A DNA stretch of 64,000 nucleotides, taken from a virus (taxonomy: Duplodnaviria > Caudoviricetes). The stretch covers positions 15,204 through 79,203 of the IMG/VR virus record IMGVR_UViG_3300037454_001182; one strand, given 5' to 3'. The position numbers and the translations under genes were made by a program. The notes under the pieces are model-generated. The model did not search any database, was not told where the DNA came from, and worked only from the letters and a program-made list of their open reading frames with translations. This document shows positions 14,106-60,202 of this stretch, one piece after another; within the stretch, counting starts at the first letter, position 1, and every line of letters starts with the position of its first letter.

Positions 14106-14124
14106 CGGTTGTTCTTTTTAGTTG

Positions 14125-14196
14125 CTCTGGGTGCGAGGCTCGAACTCGCGACTTCCACTCTTTCAAGTGACGTTCTACCAACTGAACTAACCCAGA
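14125..14196 (-). tRNA. tRNA-like gene (Phe-GAA-like) with a 6-nt anticodon loop and no encoded CCA
   Basis: Cloverleaf: acceptor TCTGGGT/ACCCAGA, D arm GTTC-AGTTGGTA-GAAC, anticodon arm TCACT-TGAAAG-AGTGG, T arm GCGAG-TTCGAGC-CTCGC. 72 nt, one short of canonical. Confidence 0.75.
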
Positions 14197-15083: not shown

Positions 15084-15562
15084 AGAGTGAGTGCGTTTAT
15101 TTTCTTTAATGCGACTTCCTTTGCTCTTTCGAGCCGTGCGTTTACCTCATTTTGCGCCCATATCCGTGTGGATTCCAGAACGTCTTTACTCTCGATAGCC
15201 TCTACCTTGTCTGCATAGTTCATGGCTGCTACAACCACAAGTGCAAAGACATTGGCATATTCCCTTGCCAGTTCTGCAACCATCTTCTTTCCCTCATCGG
15301 AACCGAGTTTCCCAGACTTGACCACATCGAATGCGGATTCAATCTGTTTCACTCCGTAGTCATAGATGGAGTAGCCGATGGATGAACGCAGGTTGGCGGT
15401 ATGGTCTATCCAACTCTCATCTGCTGTGCGGTCTCTGACCTTGCGAACACTTTCCTCTCCGAGTTTGGCAAAGGCCATGAAGATTTCGTTTTTGATGATG
15501 TCAAAACTTTTCTTCAAGAAAGCCTCAACTGCACTTGCAGGGGTTGTCATTCTTATTGCCAT
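15080..15562 (-). CDS. HK97 gp10-like neck/tail component
   Basis: WIDHTANLRSSIGY motif and AAMNYA; synteny. Confidence 0.65.
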   Translation of the reverse strand: MAIRMTTPASAVEAFLKKSFDIIKNEIFMAFAKLGEESVRKVRDRTADESWIDHTANLRSSIGYSIYDYGVKQIESAFDVVKSGKLGSDEGKKMVAELAREYANVFALVVVAAMNYADKVEAIESKDVLESTRIWAQNEVNARLERAKEVALKKINALTL

Positions 15563-16246: not shown

Positions 16247-17830
16247 TTAGGCGTTTGCGGCCTGGTTCACGGTAATGGTAGCGGTCTTAGTGCCGACAGT
16301 CACGGTAACTGTACCAGTACGAGCAGGTGCGCTTGTCTCGCTGTTGGCAGCAACCTTAACAGTCACGGTGTCACCGTCAATGGTAGGCGTAATCCATGCC
16401 TGTTCGGTAGTTGCGGTAGCGGTAGCAAGGTTCTCTGTGTCATTGGTGCCGACCTTTACGGTCTTACCTGTGTTGTCAGCGGTCTTGGCGAACTCCAGAG
16501 TGGCAGGTGTCAGAATGGGGAAGTAAACACAGCCTTTCAGCAGTTTCTTCTCATCCTTATCACTCAGACCGTTCACTGCGGTAATCACAGCGGAATCGGT
16601 TGCTGAAGATGCGATGTCAACACCCATAGACTTCAAGCCGCTAATAACGTCAGCCTTGACGTACTTCTTACCATTGATGGTGACGTAGGTATCTTCACTG
16701 TCTGCGGTCTCAGCCGTAGTGTCAACGGCAGCGGATTTCTCCTCGTTGCAGTCAATGACATAAATCTGGTCAACATCCTCAATGACAGGAAGAACGAGTG
16801 CTTGGCCGGAAGTGAACTCCTGCAAGGGGTCATTCTTCGAGTACTTGGAGATAAGTTTGTACTTGTCAACGGTAGCATACTTGACACCCTCAACAGGATT
16901 GGTAGCCTCAGCGAGAGTACCCCAGACGAGAGAGCCAACGATGGTGTTGCAGATGAACACGATGCGCTCGTCATTCCAAGGCTTCTCGGAGTGCTGCTTG
17001 CCGTTCTTTTCAAAGACAACGCTACGGTTGATGATTTCGATTTCATAGCCGAACTCATCCTCAAAGGCTTCCATCATGGCTTTCTTTGACGGAGTTTTCA
17101 GCTTATCATCATCATCGTAAATCTTGCCCTCATAGTCGGCAACCATTTCCTGTGCCCAACGGAGGCGACGGATAGCATCGAACCGCTTCTTAGACATCAG
17201 ACACTTAACGATGGTGTTACCATCCTCATTTGCCTTATCGTTGACGTTCTCGAAGTCCTCCTTAGACAACTCACCTTTCTTGATAGTGCCAAAGGTGTTC
17301 TCTTCCAGATAGCCATAGTTGACGCGGAGGCCAGTACCAGTGTTATCTTCGTCCTCAACAAGCACGACACCCTCACAAAGTCCAGTGAGGAAGTTTGCTT
17401 CGTTCTTTTCGTCAATACCAACCGAACAAGCCACACCGTCATTGGTGAGGTTCTGGATGATGCGGAACTTCTCGGCTTTCTTTGCCTCATCCGTGGTGGC
17501 TGTGGCATAGTGAGCCTTCATAATGTTGATGGTGTTGATTTCCGTTTCACGGAGAATCTTTTTCATACCCACCTTGGGCAGCTTACCATTCGAGGTGGCG
17601 AGGCTACCACGTTTCTTGATGGGCAGAGGGGAATCCATTGCCACCATGTCAGCAGCAACGTAAGTGGTCTTGGCACTTGTGCCCTCCCACTTCTGGTCAG
17701 CGGAATACACCTCGCGGAGCATGGTCTTATGCAGGTAGGTACGCTCTTTCGGGTCAACCTTTTCCTTGACATAGAGAGCCAACTTCGGCCAGATGCCACT
17801 GATGAACTCAATAAAAAGTGATTTCTTCAT
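16247..17830 (-). CDS. Major capsid protein with C-terminal extension ending in a BACON/Ig-like domain
   Basis: Follows scaffold and decoration genes; ~365-aa capsid-like body, then a helical linker domain and a Thr/Val-rich beta domain (QAWITPTIDGDTVTVKVAANSE..ARTGTVTVTVGTKTATITVNQAA). Confidence 0.8.
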   Translation of the reverse strand: MKKSLFIEFISGIWPKLALYVKEKVDPKERTYLHKTMLREVYSADQKWEGTSAKTTYVAADMVAMDSPLPIKKRGSLATSNGKLPKVGMKKILRETEINTINIMKAHYATATTDEAKKAEKFRIIQNLTNDGVACSVGIDEKNEANFLTGLCEGVVLVEDEDNTGTGLRVNYGYLEENTFGTIKKGELSKEDFENVNDKANEDGNTIVKCLMSKKRFDAIRRLRWAQEMVADYEGKIYDDDDKLKTPSKKAMMEAFEDEFGYEIEIINRSVVFEKNGKQHSEKPWNDERIVFICNTIVGSLVWGTLAEATNPVEGVKYATVDKYKLISKYSKNDPLQEFTSGQALVLPVIEDVDQIYVIDCNEEKSAAVDTTAETADSEDTYVTINGKKYVKADVISGLKSMGVDIASSATDSAVITAVNGLSDKDEKKLLKGCVYFPILTPATLEFAKTADNTGKTVKVGTNDTENLATATATTEQAWITPTIDGDTVTVKVAANSETSAPARTGTVTVTVGTKTATITVNQAANA

Positions 17831-18286: not shown

Positions 18287-19036
18287 TTAGCCTTTGGCCA
18301 GTTCCTTGACCTCATCATCCGACATTACTTCTTCATCGTCCTTTTTGACCGTGCTGCCGGGCATCGCACCTGCTGGCTTACTGAGGGTTTCCAAACCCTT
18401 ATCCAGACGGTCTTGATTCTCGGCTTCCAAATCGGCCTCAACCTCATCGAGGAAATCTTCAAAATCCTCTTCGGTCTTGAACGACATACGAGCGAAAGAC
18501 TTCATCACGCGCTCACCGTACTTGCCAGTGTCTTTGACAATAGCCTCCAGACGTGCTTTGCGGCTATCGGCAGTCTTACCACTCTTCAATTCCTCAACCT
18601 GCCCTTTGAGGCTGTTGATGGTCTCAGTCAGTGGAGAGAGAGCCTTGGCGAGTTGTGCAGCGAGGGAATCATCCTCACCCTTTCCACTCTTGCCTTTCTT
18701 TGAAGATGGACTCTTACGACCCTTTGGAGTGACTGGCTCATCGTCTTGGTCGTCATCATCGTCATCATCATCATCATCGTCAGCATCGAGCGAATCTTTG
18801 TACTGTTGGAAACGGCGGTCTGCGGCAGATTGAGCGAACTGTAACACGTCAATGGCGGCATTAACCTCTTCGTCAATGGCTTTTGTTACATCTTCGTCAC
18901 TGGCATCATCTTCGAGGTCAAGTTTATCGGCAACTTTGGCGGCGATACCCTTAATCTCCTTACGGCTGAACCCGAGCGCCTTAATTTCCTTTCTCGTTTT
19001 CAGCACTTCCAGAACTTTTCTAAAATGTCTGTTCAT
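18287..19036 (-). CDS. Capsid scaffolding protein
   Basis: Acidic, helical, with a poly-Asp tract; immediately upstream of decoration and capsid genes. Confidence 0.7.
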   Translation of the reverse strand: MNRHFRKVLEVLKTRKEIKALGFSRKEIKGIAAKVADKLDLEDDASDEDVTKAIDEEVNAAIDVLQFAQSAADRRFQQYKDSLDADDDDDDDDDDDQDDEPVTPKGRKSPSSKKGKSGKGEDDSLAAQLAKALSPLTETINSLKGQVEELKSGKTADSRKARLEAIVKDTGKYGERVMKSFARMSFKTEEDFEDFLDEVEADLEAENQDRLDKGLETLSKPAGAMPGSTVKKDDEEVMSDDEVKELAKG

Positions 19037-19059
19037 TGTTTTACGGATTTTGGTTTGTT

Positions 19060-19165
19060 AAAAATGGTCTGCGAGTGTGATACAGGCAGACCATCATCAG
19101 AACCACATCGTAAGAGCAATGTTTTAATCCGAACAGTTCTGTCACGTGCATCTTCACACGCTTTC
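19060..19165 (-). ncRNA. Candidate sRNA-1 carrying CAUUGCUCUUAC (antisense to AGAGCA-AUG starts)
   Basis: Promoter TTTG-N19-TACCTTTG at 19171-19201; stem CAGAAC/GTTCTG presents the seed (19110-19121) in its loop; terminator ATGGTCTGC/GCAGACCAT plus T-tract at 19060-19094. Confidence 0.6.
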
Positions 19166-19186
19166 GGTCGCAAAGGTACTCAAATT

Positions 19187-19203
19187 TATTTGAATAACAA
19201 ATA
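19187..19203. promoter_or_regulatory. Operator-like palindrome TATTTG-AATAA-CAAATA, copy 1, overlapping the -33 box
   Basis: Exact 17-mer found 5 times in the window. Confidence 0.75.
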
Positions 19204-19287
19204 ATTTTGTGATTTTTTTGCTAAAAAGTGAGGGTATTCGACAACTTTTGCTGCCAAACACCCTCTGGATGCAATGAAAACAGATAT

Positions 19288-19304
19288 TATTTGTTATTCA
19301 AATA
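19288..19304. promoter_or_regulatory. Operator-like palindrome, copy 2 (reverse orientation)
   Basis: TATTTGTTATTCAAATA is the reverse complement of copy 1. Confidence 0.7.
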
Positions 19305-19483
19305 TCTTCATCCTCATCTTCTGGCTCATCCAAATCTTCGATGTAGCCATCATCGACCAGGACGGAATATAAATCCTGTTTTGCGTTCACGGAAATTGCA
19401 TTGAAAACAACGTCCGCAACCTCTTCACTGGCATTCTCATAGAGCCAGTTATATACTGCTTGCTCCTTGGCTTTCGTGAACAT
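19298..19483 (-). CDS. Small acidic hypothetical protein
   Basis: 61-aa ORF in an operon with its neighbour. Confidence 0.6.
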   Translation of the reverse strand: MFTKAKEQAVYNWLYENASEEVADVVFNAISVNAKQDLYSVLVDDGYIEDLDEPEDEDEDI

Positions 19484-19486
19484 ATA

Positions 19487-19972
19487 TTATAATTTATAGA
19501 AGTCAATACCCTTTGCCAACAGTTGGCTCTTCAATTCGTCAAACTGGTGCTTATCTATACTGGTGAACAACAGACCCTCTTTTGTCTGGCCGTGAAACTT
19601 CACATAGGATGGGAAATTCAACTGATTCACGGTCACTGCGTCCTGTTGGTAGAATACGAAATCATGGTCACGCTCAAACATCACCAAAGCCTCTGGATGG
19701 GCTTGCTTGCTCTTGCAATACTCCCTCAGAATCCTCTCACGTTCTGCAACTCCGGCCATCGTACTGAAGAAAGCACTGACGAACATTCTCTTTACTTCTG
19801 CCTCATTTGCTTCTGGGTAGTCAGTCTTGACAATCAACTGACAATTACCTGCATAGTTTGACCAACTTATTTCAAAGTTATAGTAGGTGGCACCCTCCAT
19901 AACTCGTTTGATGCTCTTGCAATCTTGCTCACAGAGATTGCCTAACTCGTTTCCCAAATAGACTTCAATCAT
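19487..19972 (-). CDS. Hypothetical protein with degenerate C-terminal MutS domain I-like region
   Basis: REYCKSKQAHPEALVMFERDHDFVFYQQDAVTV parallels the MutS-I pattern QYxxxKxxHPDAxLxFRxGDFYExFxEDA; AGAGCA-ATG start. Confidence 0.55.
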   Translation of the reverse strand: MIEVYLGNELGNLCEQDCKSIKRVMEGATYYNFEISWSNYAGNCQLIVKTDYPEANEAEVKRMFVSAFFSTMAGVAERERILREYCKSKQAHPEALVMFERDHDFVFYQQDAVTVNQLNFPSYVKFHGQTKEGLLFTSIDKHQFDELKSQLLAKGIDFYKL

Positions 19973-20870: not shown

Positions 20871-21106
20871 TCTTGGCGTTCTCTATATGAGCCTTTCTTT
20901 GTCTCGGCCTTGATTTCGCCATAACTCGCATTACTCTCCCAGACTTTCTCACCATCGTTTATCTCGGTGACGAAATATCCAGTATCACCCAGGAACCCGA
21001 CTATTTTCAAAGTCCAGTAGTAGTGACCATGGGAATAAACATCGTAACTCTTGCCGATATAGGACTGCATGATGTTTCTCATTCTTGTGCTGATACCCTT
21101 TTTCAT
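20855..21106 (-). CDS. Hypothetical protein
   Basis: 83 aa, AGAGCA-ATG start. Confidence 0.65.
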   Translation of the reverse strand: MKKGISTRMRNIMQSYIGKSYDVYSHGHYYWTLKIVGFLGDTGYFVTEINDGEKVWESNASYGEIKAETKKGSYRERQDVKQS

Positions 21107-21126
21107 TGCTCTTACTTGTTTGATGG

Positions 21127-26958: not shown

Positions 26959-27600
26959 TCATGCCCATAACTTCACGGCTGTATCGTAATTCTTCTGGGC
27001 TTCATTAACGGCTTTCTTGGCATAGGTCAGAGAGTAGGCATGTTCGCGCTCAATCTTACCCTCTTTCATGGCTTGATGGTATGCCTTGGCCTTTTCCAGA
27101 ATCTCAGCGTAATACTGTATGCTCTCTGGCATTGACAGGTTGATGTCCTCAGTGTGACGTTCCCAACCCTCGGCCTTGTCACGGTAGGCTTCTGCCTTAT
27201 CCATTTCAGCGGCCATCTTTCCAGTGTTGCGCCATGCGTCCTCAATGGCTTTGCGGTGTCTGCGCTCAGAATGATGTCCGACTTTGATAGGCTCTCCCAG
27301 AGAGAGGAAAGCTGCATCTTTGTTGGACTTGTCGAAATACTCACCTGCGCGTCTGTCTGCATTGGCGGCTGCTTGCTCGTACTTCTCGACTTTCCGTTTG
27401 GCTCTCTCCTGGCAGTTGTAGCCATCAGCCCGAACGATGGAGTAGTAGAAAAATCCACCACGTTCTGCCACGAGGTTGTAAACGATGTGTTCATTCTCTT
27501 TGCCGTACTTTGTAGTTACGGTGATGATTTCGCCTCTTTCGTGCCTCTCTTCGCATTTTGCTACAAATACGTTGGGGCAATACTTTTGATACGTGTTCAT
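26959..27600 (-). CDS. DUF3560-like protein
   Basis: GEPIKVGHHSERRHRK motif; AGAGCA-ATG start. Confidence 0.8.
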   Translation of the reverse strand: MNTYQKYCPNVFVAKCEERHERGEIITVTTKYGKENEHIVYNLVAERGGFFYYSIVRADGYNCQERAKRKVEKYEQAAANADRRAGEYFDKSNKDAAFLSLGEPIKVGHHSERRHRKAIEDAWRNTGKMAAEMDKAEAYRDKAEGWERHTEDINLSMPESIQYYAEILEKAKAYHQAMKEGKIEREHAYSLTYAKKAVNEAQKNYDTAVKLWA

Positions 27601-27623
27601 TGCTCTTACTTTTTATAGGGTTA

Positions 27624-28900: not shown

Positions 28901-29254
28901 TCATGCCTCCCCATATAAGCGGTTAATGAACTTTTCCAGATAGCACTCATCTTTCATTTCAGACAATGGCTTCGGATTGTGGCAGATGTCTCTCTCAACA
29001 CCGCAACCCCAACTATTCTTCAAGTTCTGGAGTTCGGTAAGGCTGAAATACCCATACTCACATTCTCCATACCCATTGACTACGATTCCAAAAGCCAGAT
29101 TCTCTTTTAGGTCGGCTTCCAACACATACCAGGTATGCGCCCCACCAGTGAGGAAATACTTAACTACGCAAATGGCATTTTGCTTTTTGTCGCTCTGGGA
29201 GTACAGCGGAAATTTCGCTAACTCCTTTTCTACTTGTTTCGTGACTAATTTCAT
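28901..29254 (-). CDS. DUF2958-like protein
   Basis: VVKYFLTGGAHTWYVLE...EYGYFSLTEL...VERD motif. Confidence 0.75.
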   Translation of the reverse strand: MKLVTKQVEKELAKFPLYSQSDKKQNAICVVKYFLTGGAHTWYVLEADLKENLAFGIVVNGYGECEYGYFSLTELQNLKNSWGCGVERDICHNPKPLSEMKDECYLEKFINRLYGEA

Positions 29255-29276
29255 TGCTCTTACTGCTATGTGGTTA

Positions 29277-31588: not shown

Positions 31589-31591
31589 AAT

Positions 31592-31663
31592 AAAAAAGGT
31601 GTGTCCTAACTTCACAGTCGAGACACACTAAGAGCAATGAAATCGTCAAAAGAAACGATTTCG
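31592..31663 (-). ncRNA. Candidate sRNA-2 carrying AUUUCAUUGCUCUUAGUGUGU (antisense to AGAGCA-AUG starts)
   Basis: -7 box TAATTTTG at 31668-31675; 5' hairpin GAAATCGT/ACGATTTC; unpaired seed; terminator GTGTGTC/GACACAC plus T6. Confidence 0.65.
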
Positions 31664-31705
31664 GCTGCAAAATTACAAAATAATATTCAAACCATCTAAT
31701 TTTTG

Positions 31706-34355: not shown

Positions 34356-34892
34356 CTATTGAAAGAAATCATCAAAGAGGCCCAACTGTCGCGGCTTCAA
34401 CGCCTCGAACTCTTCTCTGAAGAACTGGTCTTTGGTGCGCCCCATCATCTTACCCTTGCGAGTGTGAACATCGTAGGTGTATTCTGGAATGGGAATCGGG
34501 TACCGTCTGGCATCTTCGAGCCATGCGTCCACATTCTCCAGTCGGTTCTGGTCATAGACAAGATTCTGCAAGTGGTCTGCATCACGGCTTTTGCGACACT
34601 CACACAGGAGCAGAACGGCCTTACTGACGAACACCCTGCCTTTCGGCACAGGTTGTTTCTTGTTTACTAACTCATGGCCCTGCCATAACGCCTCAATCTC
34701 TTGGGTGATGAGGCCGTAGCAGTCTTCCGCGCTTATCGTGTATAGTCTCTTCCAGACATAATCACGGTAGCCTGAATGCCATAATTCCAGGGCGAAATAC
34801 CCTGCTGTTCGTGCGTCTGCTCTACGAATGGCCTTTTGCATGGCTGATGATACTTCGTAGAAATCGTAACCTTTAACTGTTCTTAATTCCAT
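34356..34892 (-). CDS. RarA/MgsA C-terminal-like domain protein
   Basis: YEVSSAMQKAIRR...RLYTISAEDC motif; no AAA+ core; C-terminal QLGLF. Confidence 0.7.
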   Translation of the reverse strand: MELRTVKGYDFYEVSSAMQKAIRRADARTAGYFALELWHSGYRDYVWKRLYTISAEDCYGLITQEIEALWQGHELVNKKQPVPKGRVFVSKAVLLLCECRKSRDADHLQNLVYDQNRLENVDAWLEDARRYPIPIPEYTYDVHTRKGKMMGRTKDQFFREEFEALKPRQLGLFDDFFQ

Positions 34893-34987
34893 TGCTCTTA
34901 CTTTTGGTTTTGTTATTCTTGTTTTCTAACAGTAAAGTTAGTCATTTTTAGCGAGATATGCAAATTTTCAAACTTCTTTTTCATCGT

Positions 34988-35749: not shown

Positions 35750-36386
35750 CTTCTATACTGATAACATTTGACTTGCACAAACGACCGCTCTTATATGATT
35801 TCATCCTCTGCATACCCAACTTCTCACGGAGCCAGTTAGAATCGACCTCATTTGAACTATGTATGATGAACAACTCGTGTTTCTCATCATACTTGGGAAT
35901 CATCGGGTAAACGGCATCTTCATCCTTGATGTTGTTGAACCTCTTTTCAAAGGCATCTTTCTTCTTTTCCTCTGGCAGTTCAACACCCCAACCCATCAAC
36001 TCATCTGGGTTCCAGTCATTCATCATGGCTTCGATGTCATTCTCACCAAAGGAAACATTGTCTTTGGATGCGTACTCACGCAACTTTGCAGCAGTAGTCT
36101 CTTTAGGCAGTATCTTGACTGGAACCTCCTTAAATCCCAACTCCCTGCATGCGCGAAGTCTGAGGTTTCCGCAAACGGCTACCAGGACATCATCAACAGG
36201 GTACGCGATAATCTCACGAAGAGACAGCATTTCGGGTGATTCCTCGATGCTTTTCTTCATCAACTTGTAACGCAAATCTCGGACAAAACGAGGGTTCTTT
36301 GGTACTCCCTCTATCTGTCCTGTATTGTACTGCAACCGAGACACTTCAACGATTGACAGTGGTATTGCCTTAAATTCTCTCTGCAT
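35709..36386 (-). CDS. ParB/Srx N-terminal domain protein
   Basis: PKNPRFVRD, VCGNLRLRACRELG, KDNVSFGE; start moved downstream of the promoter (MQREFK). Confidence 0.8.
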   Translation of the reverse strand: MQREFKAIPLSIVEVSRLQYNTGQIEGVPKNPRFVRDLRYKLMKKSIEESPEMLSLREIIAYPVDDVLVAVCGNLRLRACRELGFKEVPVKILPKETTAAKLREYASKDNVSFGENDIEAMMNDWNPDELMGWGVELPEEKKKDAFEKRFNNIKDEDAVYPMIPKYDEKHELFIIHSSNEVDSNWLREKLGMQRMKSYKSGRLCKSNVISIEDVRHALEDSHTQS

Positions 36387-50295: not shown

Positions 50296-51105
50296 TTATT
50301 TATCGTATTTGTCTATGTACTCTTTCATTTCCATGCCGTACTTTTTCTTGAACAGTTTGCCAAACTGCGCCTTGGTGTTATCATCGGCCATCGGGTCATT
50401 GAGTAGGGATTTGGCAAGCCTCACTATGTCTGCCGGATTCTCCTTTGGCTGAGGCTTCGGCTTTCTCTTTAGTTTGCCAATAGGTTGCTCCCACGGCTTG
50501 GGTCGAATCTCGCCATACTCTCTCATGCAGTAATCTTCCCACGTCTCTTTTGGCCTCTTGGCCTCTTCCTCTCTCTGGCGTTCCCTCTCTTCCTGTTCGT
50601 GCTTGTCATAGGCTGCTGACCTCTCTTTGAGGAAATCACGCAAAGAGGTAGTGATAACAAGAGGGTCAACAGAACCGTAGAATCTTCCATATCTACCAGA
50701 CTTGAACCGATGGAAGAATAGCATCAATTCAGTAACAGACAAATAACTGAACTCTGTGGCTATCACGATGGCACATTCTTTGAGTTGGTTGTCTGTCAGT
50801 TTGTCACGGCATCCGCAAAACTCTGACAGGTTATAGAGTTGAGGCACAAGCCACATGGCCGCTGTCTGCTCTCCGTAGGTTGTATTCAGCAATCCGAGTG
50901 TAGGCGCACCACCGAAGAAACATATATCAGTATGGGCGCATACTTTAAGCTGCAAGTCTGGATTGAAGGTAACGAGAAAGTTTTCACGCGCACCGTAGGC
51001 TTGCACTATCTCATTACTCTTCTGCCGCAAGGCTGGCAATAACACTTGCTGCTCCTTGCGCTCTTTCGGCTGCTGTTGTAGAAGTTCGACTATTGACGTT
51101 ATCAT
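50296..51105 (-). CDS. Replication-associated protein (DUF6633-like, possible helicase loader)
   Basis: LSVTELMLFFHRFKSGRYGRFYGSVDP motif; follows the initiator; AGAGCA-ATG at 51105 overlaps the initiator's 3' end. Confidence 0.7.
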   Translation of the reverse strand: MITSIVELLQQQPKERKEQQVLLPALRQKSNEIVQAYGARENFLVTFNPDLQLKVCAHTDICFFGGAPTLGLLNTTYGEQTAAMWLVPQLYNLSEFCGCRDKLTDNQLKECAIVIATEFSYLSVTELMLFFHRFKSGRYGRFYGSVDPLVITTSLRDFLKERSAAYDKHEQEERERQREEEAKRPKETWEDYCMREYGEIRPKPWEQPIGKLKRKPKPQPKENPADIVRLAKSLLNDPMADDNTKAQFGKLFKKKYGMEMKEYIDKYDK

Positions 51106-51724
51106 TGCTCTTACCTTTATATGATTTATCATTATTGGCCCATCTTTGTAACCTCTTTTCGAGTACCCAGGTAGGCTCTTGCTCCCATTTCATTTTACTG
51201 CCGGACTTGTTTGTTTCCGACCAGTAATCATAGAACGCCCTCACCATTTCCTTGCCGTATGTCTGAACGTATGGAACCAGAGACTTATAGAACTCTTTCA
51301 TCCGCTTCTCAGTTTCGGCCTTTATCTCTTCTTTGGTTTTCTTGGGCTTGGATTGTTCTGGGGTGTTGTTTGCTTGTGCGTTGTCTGTTGGTTGACTGTC
51401 ATTGTCTGAGGTGTCGCACTGATATTCCTCATACTTACAGACGGTTATGATGGTAAACTTGTTTGTTGAATACCGTTCTATCTCACCTGTCTCTTCCAGT
51501 CTGGCTAAACAAGTTCTGAGGGTCTGGACTGAAAGCCCTGTCTTAATTCGGAGAGATTCATAACTCGTAACCAACTGCCCCCTGTTGACTGGTGTGTTAT
51601 GCCACCTCTTGTTAGACACAGACGCATTCAGCAACAAATGTAGAAACAGATGCACCATTTCCGATTTGTCGTACCATTCCCAATCAAGGAACTTCCGATG
51701 TATCTTAATCCAACCGTCTGACAT
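51014..51724 (-). CDS. Phage replication initiator (lambda O-like replisome organiser)
   Basis: GWIKIHRK..DWEWY, RGQLVTS, wHTH, TIITVCKYEEYQ. Confidence 0.85.
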   Translation of the reverse strand: MSDGWIKIHRKFLDWEWYDKSEMVHLFLHLLLNASVSNKRWHNTPVNRGQLVTSYESLRIKTGLSVQTLRTCLARLEETGEIERYSTNKFTIITVCKYEEYQCDTSDNDSQPTDNAQANNTPEQSKPKKTKEEIKAETEKRMKEFYKSLVPYVQTYGKEMVRAFYDYWSETNKSGSKMKWEQEPTWVLEKRLQRWANNDKSYKGKSNDNVNSRTSTTAAERAQGAASVIASLAAEE

Positions 51725-51847
51725 ATTGGTCAAAAGTTACCCCTATCTTTCTTGCATCGCTGCTAATGCAGGTGGAACAGATGCAATACTCAATAGGGGT
51801 TAATATCGTTGTCTGAAAGTTCCACGTTTCAGATTCGTTTCTGGCAG

Positions 51848-51880
51848 CAAAGTTAATCAAAATTATTTGAATAACAAATA
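51848..51880 (-). promoter_or_regulatory. Promoter upstream of the initiator with operator copy 5 (51864-51880)
   Basis: TTTG-N19-TAACTTTG with the exact 17-bp palindrome. Confidence 0.75.
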
Positions 51881-59653: not shown

Positions 59654-60202
59654 CTAAAAAAGATTATGCCTGTTGGCATATTGAATAAACTCGGACTTTT
59701 CGTGTATTCCTAACTTGCAATACACGCTCTTGATGTGATTCTTGACAGTATGAGGTGAGAGATACAACTGTTCTGCAATCTCTTCTTTACTCATTCCATC
59801 ATACACAAGTTTCATCACGCGCAACTCTGAATCCGACAACTTTGTGTTGAATGTCGGAAAGCAGATAACGCCCTCATACTTACATTCACCTCTCAATGGG
59901 CAATCTACCTTTTCAAAGTTGAACTTCCCAGAGGCCTCTACATCTAACTTCGTGGTATCAAGTTTGCCGAAGTTGCACTTGCAGAATCTCCGAACTATGA
60001 GGTACTGGTAATACTTCACATTCCCTGCGCTCTTCTGGTACTCTTTTTCAAGAGCCTTGTAAGCGGTGGGGTAGTGTTCGCGTATCAATTCCAGTAGGTG
60101 CTGAATCAACTCCGTATTGGATTCAGTCACTACCTCATTGCGGCCATCTGCATACTTGCACCACAATTCACTTTCGTAGATGTAAAACTCTAACTGTTCC
60201 AT
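59654..60202 (-). CDS. LuxR-type HTH transcription regulator
   Basis: LSDSELRVMKLVYDGMSKEEIAEQLYLSPHTVKNHIKSVYCKLG. Confidence 0.88.
   Translation of the reverse strand: MEQLEFYIYESELWCKYADGRNEVVTESNTELIQHLLELIREHYPTAYKALEKEYQKSAGNVKYYQYLIVRRFCKCNFGKLDTTKLDVEASGKFNFEKVDCPLRGECKYEGVICFPTFNTKLSDSELRVMKLVYDGMSKEEIAEQLYLSPHTVKNHIKSVYCKLGIHEKSEFIQYANRHNLF

Follow-up and report, generated by a model that had tools for sequence, protein, structure and literature searches.

The late leader of the lambdoid phages consists of the promoter pR', the 6S RNA and the terminator tR', with antitermination by Q. Phage antisense RNAs that act on start regions are known as sar in P22, c4 in P1/P7 and CI in P4; c4 and CI come from the leader of the operon that they control, and the targets of each of these RNAs lie in one operon (ant/icd or P4 alpha). 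In T4, the translational repressor RegA and the nuclease RegB are proteins, and many early mRNAs that share a feature of the start region are shut off jointly. The sRNAs rnTrpL and SreA/SreB derive from attenuators, and such leaders sense a metabolite or the charging of a tRNA. The hairpin loop of lambda nutL boxB is GAAGA. To our knowledge, next to nothing is known about gene regulation in phages of Bacteroidota, and their hosts work without Shine-Dalgarno-led initiation, Hfq and ProQ. A literature search on antisense RNAs of Bacteroides phages found nothing. In Stx phages, a short transcript that ends just after the late promoter can act as an sRNA (StxS; PMC7547250), and sRNAs derived from 5'UTRs have been reported in Bacteroides, B. 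thetaiotaomicron (PMC7366714).

The locus described here is the leader of the head operon in a 64,000-nt stretch of a virus record (IMGVR_UViG_3300037454_001182, positions 15,204 to 79,203), referred to below as the window. It belongs to an undescribed, strongly conserved family of leader RNAs at the entry to the head genes, for which an alignment and a covariance model are provided. The family is tied to genomes with dozens of identical start-codon contexts and with RNAs that bear the exact complement of these. An even chance is given to the reading that the locus makes a head-operon leader RNA with a promoter-proximal terminator, the terminated product of which may double as an antisense RNA.

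As in the lambdoid pR'-6S-tR' unit and StxS, an intrinsic terminator lies no more than about 100-200 nt past a late promoter and ahead of structural genes, and regulation by base pairing of the short terminated RNA, of which StxS is capable, is proposed for the head leader. Unlike in the lambdoid phages, the promoter is of the Bacteroidota sigma-A type with a palindromic -33 box, and a Q homologue was not found; neither sequence nor Rfam models relate the locus to the lambdoid leader or StxS, and the proposed targets are genes of the phage itself, not host mRNAs. With sar, c4 and CI it shares the design of a short structured RNA from the 5' part of an operon that is complementary to phage start regions. 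Its seed, however, matches about 23 dispersed genes instead of one operon, there is no sequence similarity, and RNase P processing, as in c4 and CI, is not indicated. The logic of RegA and RegB, a joint shut-off through a shared start-region feature, is similar, but the proposed effector is an RNA. Like rnTrpL, SreA/SreB and the 5'UTR-derived sRNAs, a prematurely terminated leader would double as a trans-acting RNA; unlike for rnTrpL and SreA/SreB, no ligand or leader peptide is indicated. The first hairpin (P1) offers a lead towards lambda boxB: both are short hairpins at the start of the transcript, and P1 has an invariant purine-rich GAAGA(U) loop on a covarying stem. Unlike in boxB, the six-base loop of P1 is closed by U-G, and an N-like protein was not identified. 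Neither its sequence nor a protein partner nor an Rfam model places the leader in any of the families compared.

The head operon and its leader RNA

The record of which the window is a part has 79,203 bp and is classed as a complete provirus, and the minus strand of the window holds nearly all of its genes. The source is a temperate Prevotella/Bacteroidaceae phage (prophage). The head operon opens with a gene for an acidic protein, for which gene position and composition suggest a scaffold role, followed by genes for a 135-aa protein (phrog_38330) and the major head protein (16247-17830). The starts of these three genes (17830, 18251 and 19036, minus strand) read TAAAACAATG, AACAACAATG and GAGAACAATG and are close to the start motif AAGAGCAAUG discussed below; the exact motif is absent from them. 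Upstream of the head-operon promoter, the preceding gene is closed by a terminator-like hairpin (19265-19230). On this side the regulatory region of the operon adjoins a gene for a 161-aa protein (19487-19972, minus strand) with a match to MutS domain I (PF01624, 1e-6), the start of which has AAGAGCAATG.

An earlier note on this DNA had described a consensus promoter overlapped by an operator, a 5' hairpin, a CAGAAC/GUUCUG stem and a terminator. All of these are present on the minus strand, and the promoter points at the scaffold-like gene (Table 1). Its elements match the consensus given for Bacteroides in PMC7366714, with TTTG at -33 and TAnnTTTG at -7. The transcription start of the leader is predicted at about 19166-19164, and the sequence GAAA begins five nt after the -7 box; in every relative described below, the -7 box stands 2-6 nt ahead of GAAAG.

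Table 1. Features of the head-operon leader, its start-motif matches and the second seed-bearing RNA; coordinates are those of the window unless a contig is named
Feature	Position	Strand	Description
Palindromic box ATTTGTTATTCAAAT	19188..19202	.	15-17 bp; covers the -33 TTTG of the head-operon promoter
-33 element TTTG	19201-19198	-	followed by a 19-nt spacer and the -7 box
-7 box TACCTTTG	19171..19178	-	matches the TAnnTTTG/-33 TTTG consensus
5' GAAA and hairpin P1	19144..19165	-	GCGUGU / loop GAAGAU / GCACGU; hairpin at 19161-19144
Hairpin P2	19098..19142	-	ACAGAAC (19142-19136) pairs with GGUUCUG (19104-19098); extension possible
Seed CAUUGCUCUUAC	19110..19121	-	exact complement of GUAAGAGCAAUG
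Hairpin P3 and U5	19060..19094	-	intrinsic-terminator-like; stem of 9-10 bp, 13-nt loop; arms AUGGUCUGC (19094-19086) and GCAGACCAU (19072-19064); T run 19064-19060
Scaffold-like gene	18287..19036	-	first gene of the head operon; acidic 249-aa protein, phrog_5824; ATG at 19036
Exact 12-mer GTAAGAGCAATG	21104-21115, 27598-27609, 29252-29263, 34890-34901, 51103-51114	-	gene start regions
sRNA-2	31590..31666	-	separate small RNA gene directly after the terminase gene; seed shared with the leader
sRNA-2 in relatives	L033:19581-19687	-	
sRNA-2 in relatives	L037:16975-17081	+	
sRNA-2 in relatives	L040:14072-14178	-	

The predicted leader RNA has about 105 nt and consists of the 5' GAAA and three hairpins, P1, P2 and P3, with the anti-start-codon sequence in the apical part of P2. 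From the end of P3 to the ATG of the scaffold-like gene there are 24 nt. The fold has a predicted energy of -33.4 kcal/mol (z = -2.75 against shuffled sequences), and P3 alone has -16.2 kcal/mol. In the minimum-energy fold, CAUUG of the seed region pairs with CGAUG in a small apical stem, leaving CUCUUA alone in the loop; the same apical stem is predicted in most relatives, with CGGUG or CAAUG as the partner. In an alternative fold of nearly equal energy, a large loop displays the entire seed, and the predicted cost of opening is 1.0 kcal/mol for the 10-mer and 4.2 kcal/mol for the 12-mer.

Among the covariance models of Rfam 15, none other than that for tRNA reached its gathering score in the window, and at a relaxed threshold the region 18950-19350 gave chance-level matches alone (E at or above 0.56). 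The tRNA gene (14124-14196, minus strand; 51 bits with Rfam) is read by ARAGORN with a four-base anticodon (gaaa), and its 3' end is ...CCCAGAGCA.

Distribution and conservation

Relatives were found with the hairpin pattern of P1 in three collections (viral, metagenome and bacterial genomes). The leader is present in 24 viral contigs, about 12 metagenome contigs and five Prevotella/Bacteroidaceae genomes or MAGs; removal of duplicates leaves about 16 variants in about seven lineages, with a constant position. In the relatives, the order is a palindromic -33 box, a -7 box, GAAAG, P1, P2, P3 and the ATG of a scaffold homologue, and the scaffold proteins are 42-69% identical to that of the window. 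Full copies of the leader occur once per genome. A search with the covariance model of the leader (R1) gave no extra copies in 150 sampled genomes of the Prevotella vespertina family and, in six phage genomes, no paralogues except a lone P1 in G005. This second P1 copy (L044:19075-19143, minus strand) reads GAAA-UCGUAU-GAAGAU-AUACGA and has a compensated stem; it stands at a second late-type promoter, right before a tail-type ORF of 1097 aa, and is accompanied by neither P2 nor P3. One of the bacterial genomes that hold the leader is that of the isolate Prevotella vespertina A2879, which carries a relative of the G002 type. Because this strain is a cultured lysogen, the transcriptional part of the proposal is directly testable in it.

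Pairing was assessed in an alignment of 14 sequences (A3). The homologous leaders, for which the earlier note had suggested covariance modelling, keep the pairing: 99.4% of 322 pair cells are standard, versus 27-55% in controls with slid partners. A further twelve types of pair are found, disruptions are very rare, and nearly every substitution in a stem is an A-U/G-U/G-C transition that preserves the pair. P3 is pair-compatible throughout (100% in the 14 variants); P2 has nine pairs that are 98% compatible, with changes that are always one-sided (A-U/G-U/G-C). Double-sided compensation is rare within A3, since the sequences are so conserved; the L002 class has compensated stem changes in both P1 and P3. 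Owing to 56 G-U cells, the helices are 99.4% compatible on the sense strand and 82% on the opposite strand, so the structure belongs to an RNA of the sense strand.

No variant departs from the 5' GAAA or from the loop of P1. The closest relative is L175, a Bacteroidaceae MAG; between it and the window, 5 of the 105 nt from P1 to the U-tract have changed, compared with 45% of the fourfold sites of the adjacent gene, which argues that the whole leader is under strong purifying selection. We are confident that the leader is a conserved structured RNA.

If the P1 loop and the 5' GAAA are set aside, no unpaired segment is conserved as well as the anti-start-codon loop. The eleven seed columns are identical in 5-6 of six lineage representatives; they thus equal the stems and exceed the adjacent loop columns (2-3 of 6) as well as the greater part of the P3 loop. 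The sequence CAUUGCUCU is intact in the window, L175, L016/G001, L015, L168, L048, L134 and L141, and in L168 and the G002/G003-type clade the complementarity extends into AUGAAA(U), the codons with which genes that carry the start motif most often begin. Conservation of the seed in relatives, a point on which the earlier note had made its claim depend, thus holds for most representatives but not for all: three sublineages of the G002/G003-type clade have one or two seed mismatches (CAGUGCUCU in L013/L021/G002, CAUUGAUUU in L023/G003 and CAUUGUUCU in L024), the G004 lineage has the seed reduced to GCUCUUAG, and the L002 class has a different P2 and no seed. The twelfth base of the seed matches the commonest motif flank of the same genome in G000 and G001; covariation of the two flanks is neutral in G007 and was not seen in the partial contig of G008.

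All lineages with an altered seed keep P1 and P3, and all but the L002 class keep the P2 stem. The core function of the leader is therefore independent of the seed, which, judged from these alignments, is old and mostly maintained, yet dispensable for that function.

The start motif, complementary RNAs and competing explanations

The earlier note had listed 12-nt matches to the seed at the gene starts at 21106, 27600, 29254, 34892 and 51105, and each of them was recovered (Table 1). With up to one mismatch allowed, there are 15 matches, compared with 0.35 expected from shuffled sequences. On the sense strand of the 79-kb genome the 10-mer AAGAGCAATG is found 23 times, nearly always at an ORF start, so that perfect complements of 10-12 nt to the seed cover the AUG of about 23 genes. 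Its antisense complement occurs at two sites alone, the head leader and sRNA-2, with a chance expectation of about 0.06 per window. The motif genes are non-structural and form a discrete class with 10/10 matching positions; one gene has 9/10 and the remainder 8/10 or less. A literature search for the motif returned only unrelated primer matches. In the 16S rRNA of Prevotella vespertina, a member of the host genus, there is no complement of at least 6 nt to the motif, which is therefore not Shine-Dalgarno-like. For the same reason, a role of the motif as a pairing site for 16S rRNA, with the leader as an rRNA mimic, was ruled out.

Perfect duplexes have predicted energies of -12.5 kcal/mol (10 bp) and -16.5 kcal/mol (12 bp). 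Duplexes of the P2 region with each start region of the genome were also predicted: the 20 called motif genes all fell between -14.6 and -22.5 kcal/mol, versus -14.9 kcal/mol for the best of the other genes and a genome median of -10.4 kcal/mol. The motif genes are likewise set apart by predicted duplex energy in G001, and this separation is largely lost where the seeds are mismatched, in G002 and G003.

The second RNA, sRNA-2, is composed of its own -7 box, a 5' hairpin, the single-stranded sequence AUUGCUCUUA and a terminator; its fold has z = -5.4, and the seed is predicted to be fully single-stranded. In five related phage genomes, its position is kept in G000, G002, G003 and G004, and a diverged form is found in G001. 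In the four genomes with a kept position, the seed CAUUGCUCUUAGUGU is invariant and both hairpins vary with the pairing preserved. Complementarity between sRNA-2 and the start region of a helicase gene extends over 20-21 nt in three genomes. Given this conservation, antisense control of the motif is plausible in this group of phages; as the sRNA-2 seed is invariant and single-stranded, the seed of the leader may be partly redundant. The leader had been said to have a backbone unrelated to that of sRNA-2, and this was borne out, the leader model matching sRNA-2 only at E of about 1. The further argument, that the same seed on unrelated backbones is not due to chance, also stood up, given the excess of matches over shuffled sequences and the conservation across lineages.

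We rate as slightly better than even the chance that the P2 loop works through base pairing to AAGAGCAAUG start regions, and as somewhat short of even the chance that it does so in trans. If the pairing is functional, the phage would encode an RNA regulon that controls its own translation, and start-codon masking would occur naturally in a host that lacks Shine-Dalgarno sequences.

The leader could instead be purely a transcriptional leader or attenuator, an mRNA-stability element or a protein-binding element, in which a phage or host factor recognises P1, P2 and P3, the P2 loop is conserved for that purpose, and nothing in trans depends on its complementarity to the start motif. We consider this rather unlikely. 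It would account for the strong constraint on the whole leader and not on the seed alone, for stem sequences that are conserved more than pairing requires, for the retention of everything else in the three sublineages with mismatched seeds, for the presence of P1 alone at the second late promoter of G005, and for the pairing of CAUUG in most predicted folds. What it leaves unexplained is that an exact complement of 9-16 nt to the motif persists in at least five deep lineages in which fourfold sites are saturated, and that the motif so complemented stands at 10-24 gene starts per genome. The restriction of the antisense 10-mer to the leader and sRNA-2, against the low expectation given above, and the continuation of the complementarity into AUGAAA(U) in several lineages also speak against it. 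Even less credence is due to a functionless chance match or relic of an inverted gene start. The plus strand of the antisense motif does continue as ATG TTT TAA, which is readable as the remains of a gene start, but the motif is conserved across lineages with saturated neutral sites and is embedded in a sense-strand-specific RNA structure, and 15 matches stand against the 0.35 from shuffles; we give this explanation almost no weight. Hardly more can be said for a leader peptide, translated from the AUG of P1 (MHVTEL...), the translation of which would control termination as in classical attenuation. A frame of 36 codons starts in the window at that AUG, which lies in the 3' arm of P1, and the first six codons are similar in relatives. 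The frame, however, varies from 8 to 37 codons, the peptide diverges past the conserved nucleotides, the AUG lies within the P1 stem, and the conservation follows the RNA pairing pattern, G-U pairs included. The leader-peptide attenuator was rejected, as neither the length nor the sequence of the uORF is conserved.

Masking in cis would have the P2 loop pair with the start of the scaffold gene itself and hide its AUG until opened. Most scaffold starts are near-motif (AGCAAUG; UAAGAGUAAUG in G001), and full-length folds pair the seed region with the leader's own start in 8 of 12 variants, with a probability of an unpaired AUG near 0. The match in G001 is 11 bp long (UAAGAGUAAUG, one G-U), and the L002 class, with its different P2, still has an 8-bp complement to its own start. 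In the window, by contrast, the match is merely 5+5 bp, with the AUG about half open, and the scaffold start ranks 36th of 89 among the non-motif genes for pairing with its own leader; the ranks across six genomes combine to p of about 0.09 (Fisher combination), which is not significant. The multi-gene AAGAGCAAUG motif is a closer match to the seed than the start of the scaffold gene itself, and the seed is fixed on this consensus while the scaffold start varies, with a deviation that differs by lineage; selection by many targets in trans would leave such a pattern, which is the opposite of what co-evolution in cis would produce. Pairing in trans is ranked above pairing in cis because the seed tracks the multi-gene consensus while the scaffold start deviates lineage by lineage. 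Masking in cis is on the whole improbable as the role of the loop; to judge from the predicted folds, it may contribute in lineages such as G001.

Proposed read-through and switch, and the boxed promoters

With 24 nt between P3 and the ATG, the space is too short for any promoter. Since no promoter fits downstream and the upstream gene is separately terminated, transcripts of the head genes must pass P3. The proposal that the terminator doubles as an attenuator, which needs antitermination for capsid expression, therefore agrees with the anatomy of the locus; an antiterminator, its other part, was not found. Neither a Q-like protein (PF06530, the sole Q family searched) nor a NusG-like protein (PF02357) had a match in the 79-kb genome. 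A U-run follows P3 in five of seven lineages and is weak in L015 (AUAUUU) and the G004 lineage (GUUAUU); since the U-tract is poor in these two, termination may not be the only role of P3. On balance, we think it fairly probable that P3 gates the transcription of the head genes. A toggle in which occupancy of the seed opens the terminator was rejected, as P3 still forms in silico when the seed and the 3' strand of P2 are blocked. P1, with its invariant loop, covarying stem, position at the 5' end and lone copy in G005, is on these sequence features the likeliest site for the loading of a read-through factor.

Under the preferred reading, in which the leader combines termination, control of read-through and silencing in trans, transcription would start at a Bacteroidetes-type promoter with its -33 element inside the palindromic box. 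Most transcripts would stop at P3 and yield the RNA of about 105 nt; read-through would have to be imposed on RNA polymerase, with P1 as the likeliest recognition element for the factor responsible, and expression of the head genes would thus be gated at the leader. The terminated RNA, and possibly also the full-length leader, would pair through the P2 loop with the AAGAGCAAUG starts of about 23 non-structural genes; this pairing would cover the start codons and supplement the action of the better-conserved sRNA-2.

A broader picture, which we put forward tentatively and with more doubt than belief, is an RNA-based switch from early to late expression, in which sRNA-2 and the abundant terminated head leader silence the regulon. 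The regulon would then comprise about 23 accessory, replication and other non-structural genes, all fixed on the identical start AAGAGCAAUG. Should the switch exist, it would be an RNA counterpart of T4 RegA, undescribed in phages of Bacteroidota, in which the late promoter makes the silencer.

The palindromic box of the head promoter is found in identical form on three other TAnnTTTG promoters (26606, 36442 and 51865), and an inverted copy lies at 19289. The four boxed promoters serve the head operon, the portal, the gene at 36386 and a long structured leader ahead of 51724. At the corresponding position of the head promoter, the palindrome of the relatives is spelled differently, as TTTG-N5-CAAA. 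The box is probably bound by a regulator of the phage, and a candidate for this role is a 182-aa protein with a HTH domain of the LuxR/GerE type (59654-60202, minus strand; PF00196, 6e-16). Binding of the box by this protein would affect initiation, not read-through. Its gene is the first of a long array of minus-strand genes. The leader of about 140 nt between the fourth boxed promoter and the next gene (51724-51865, minus strand) contains long inverted repeats (CCCCUAU...AUAGGGG) and is unrelated to the head leader.
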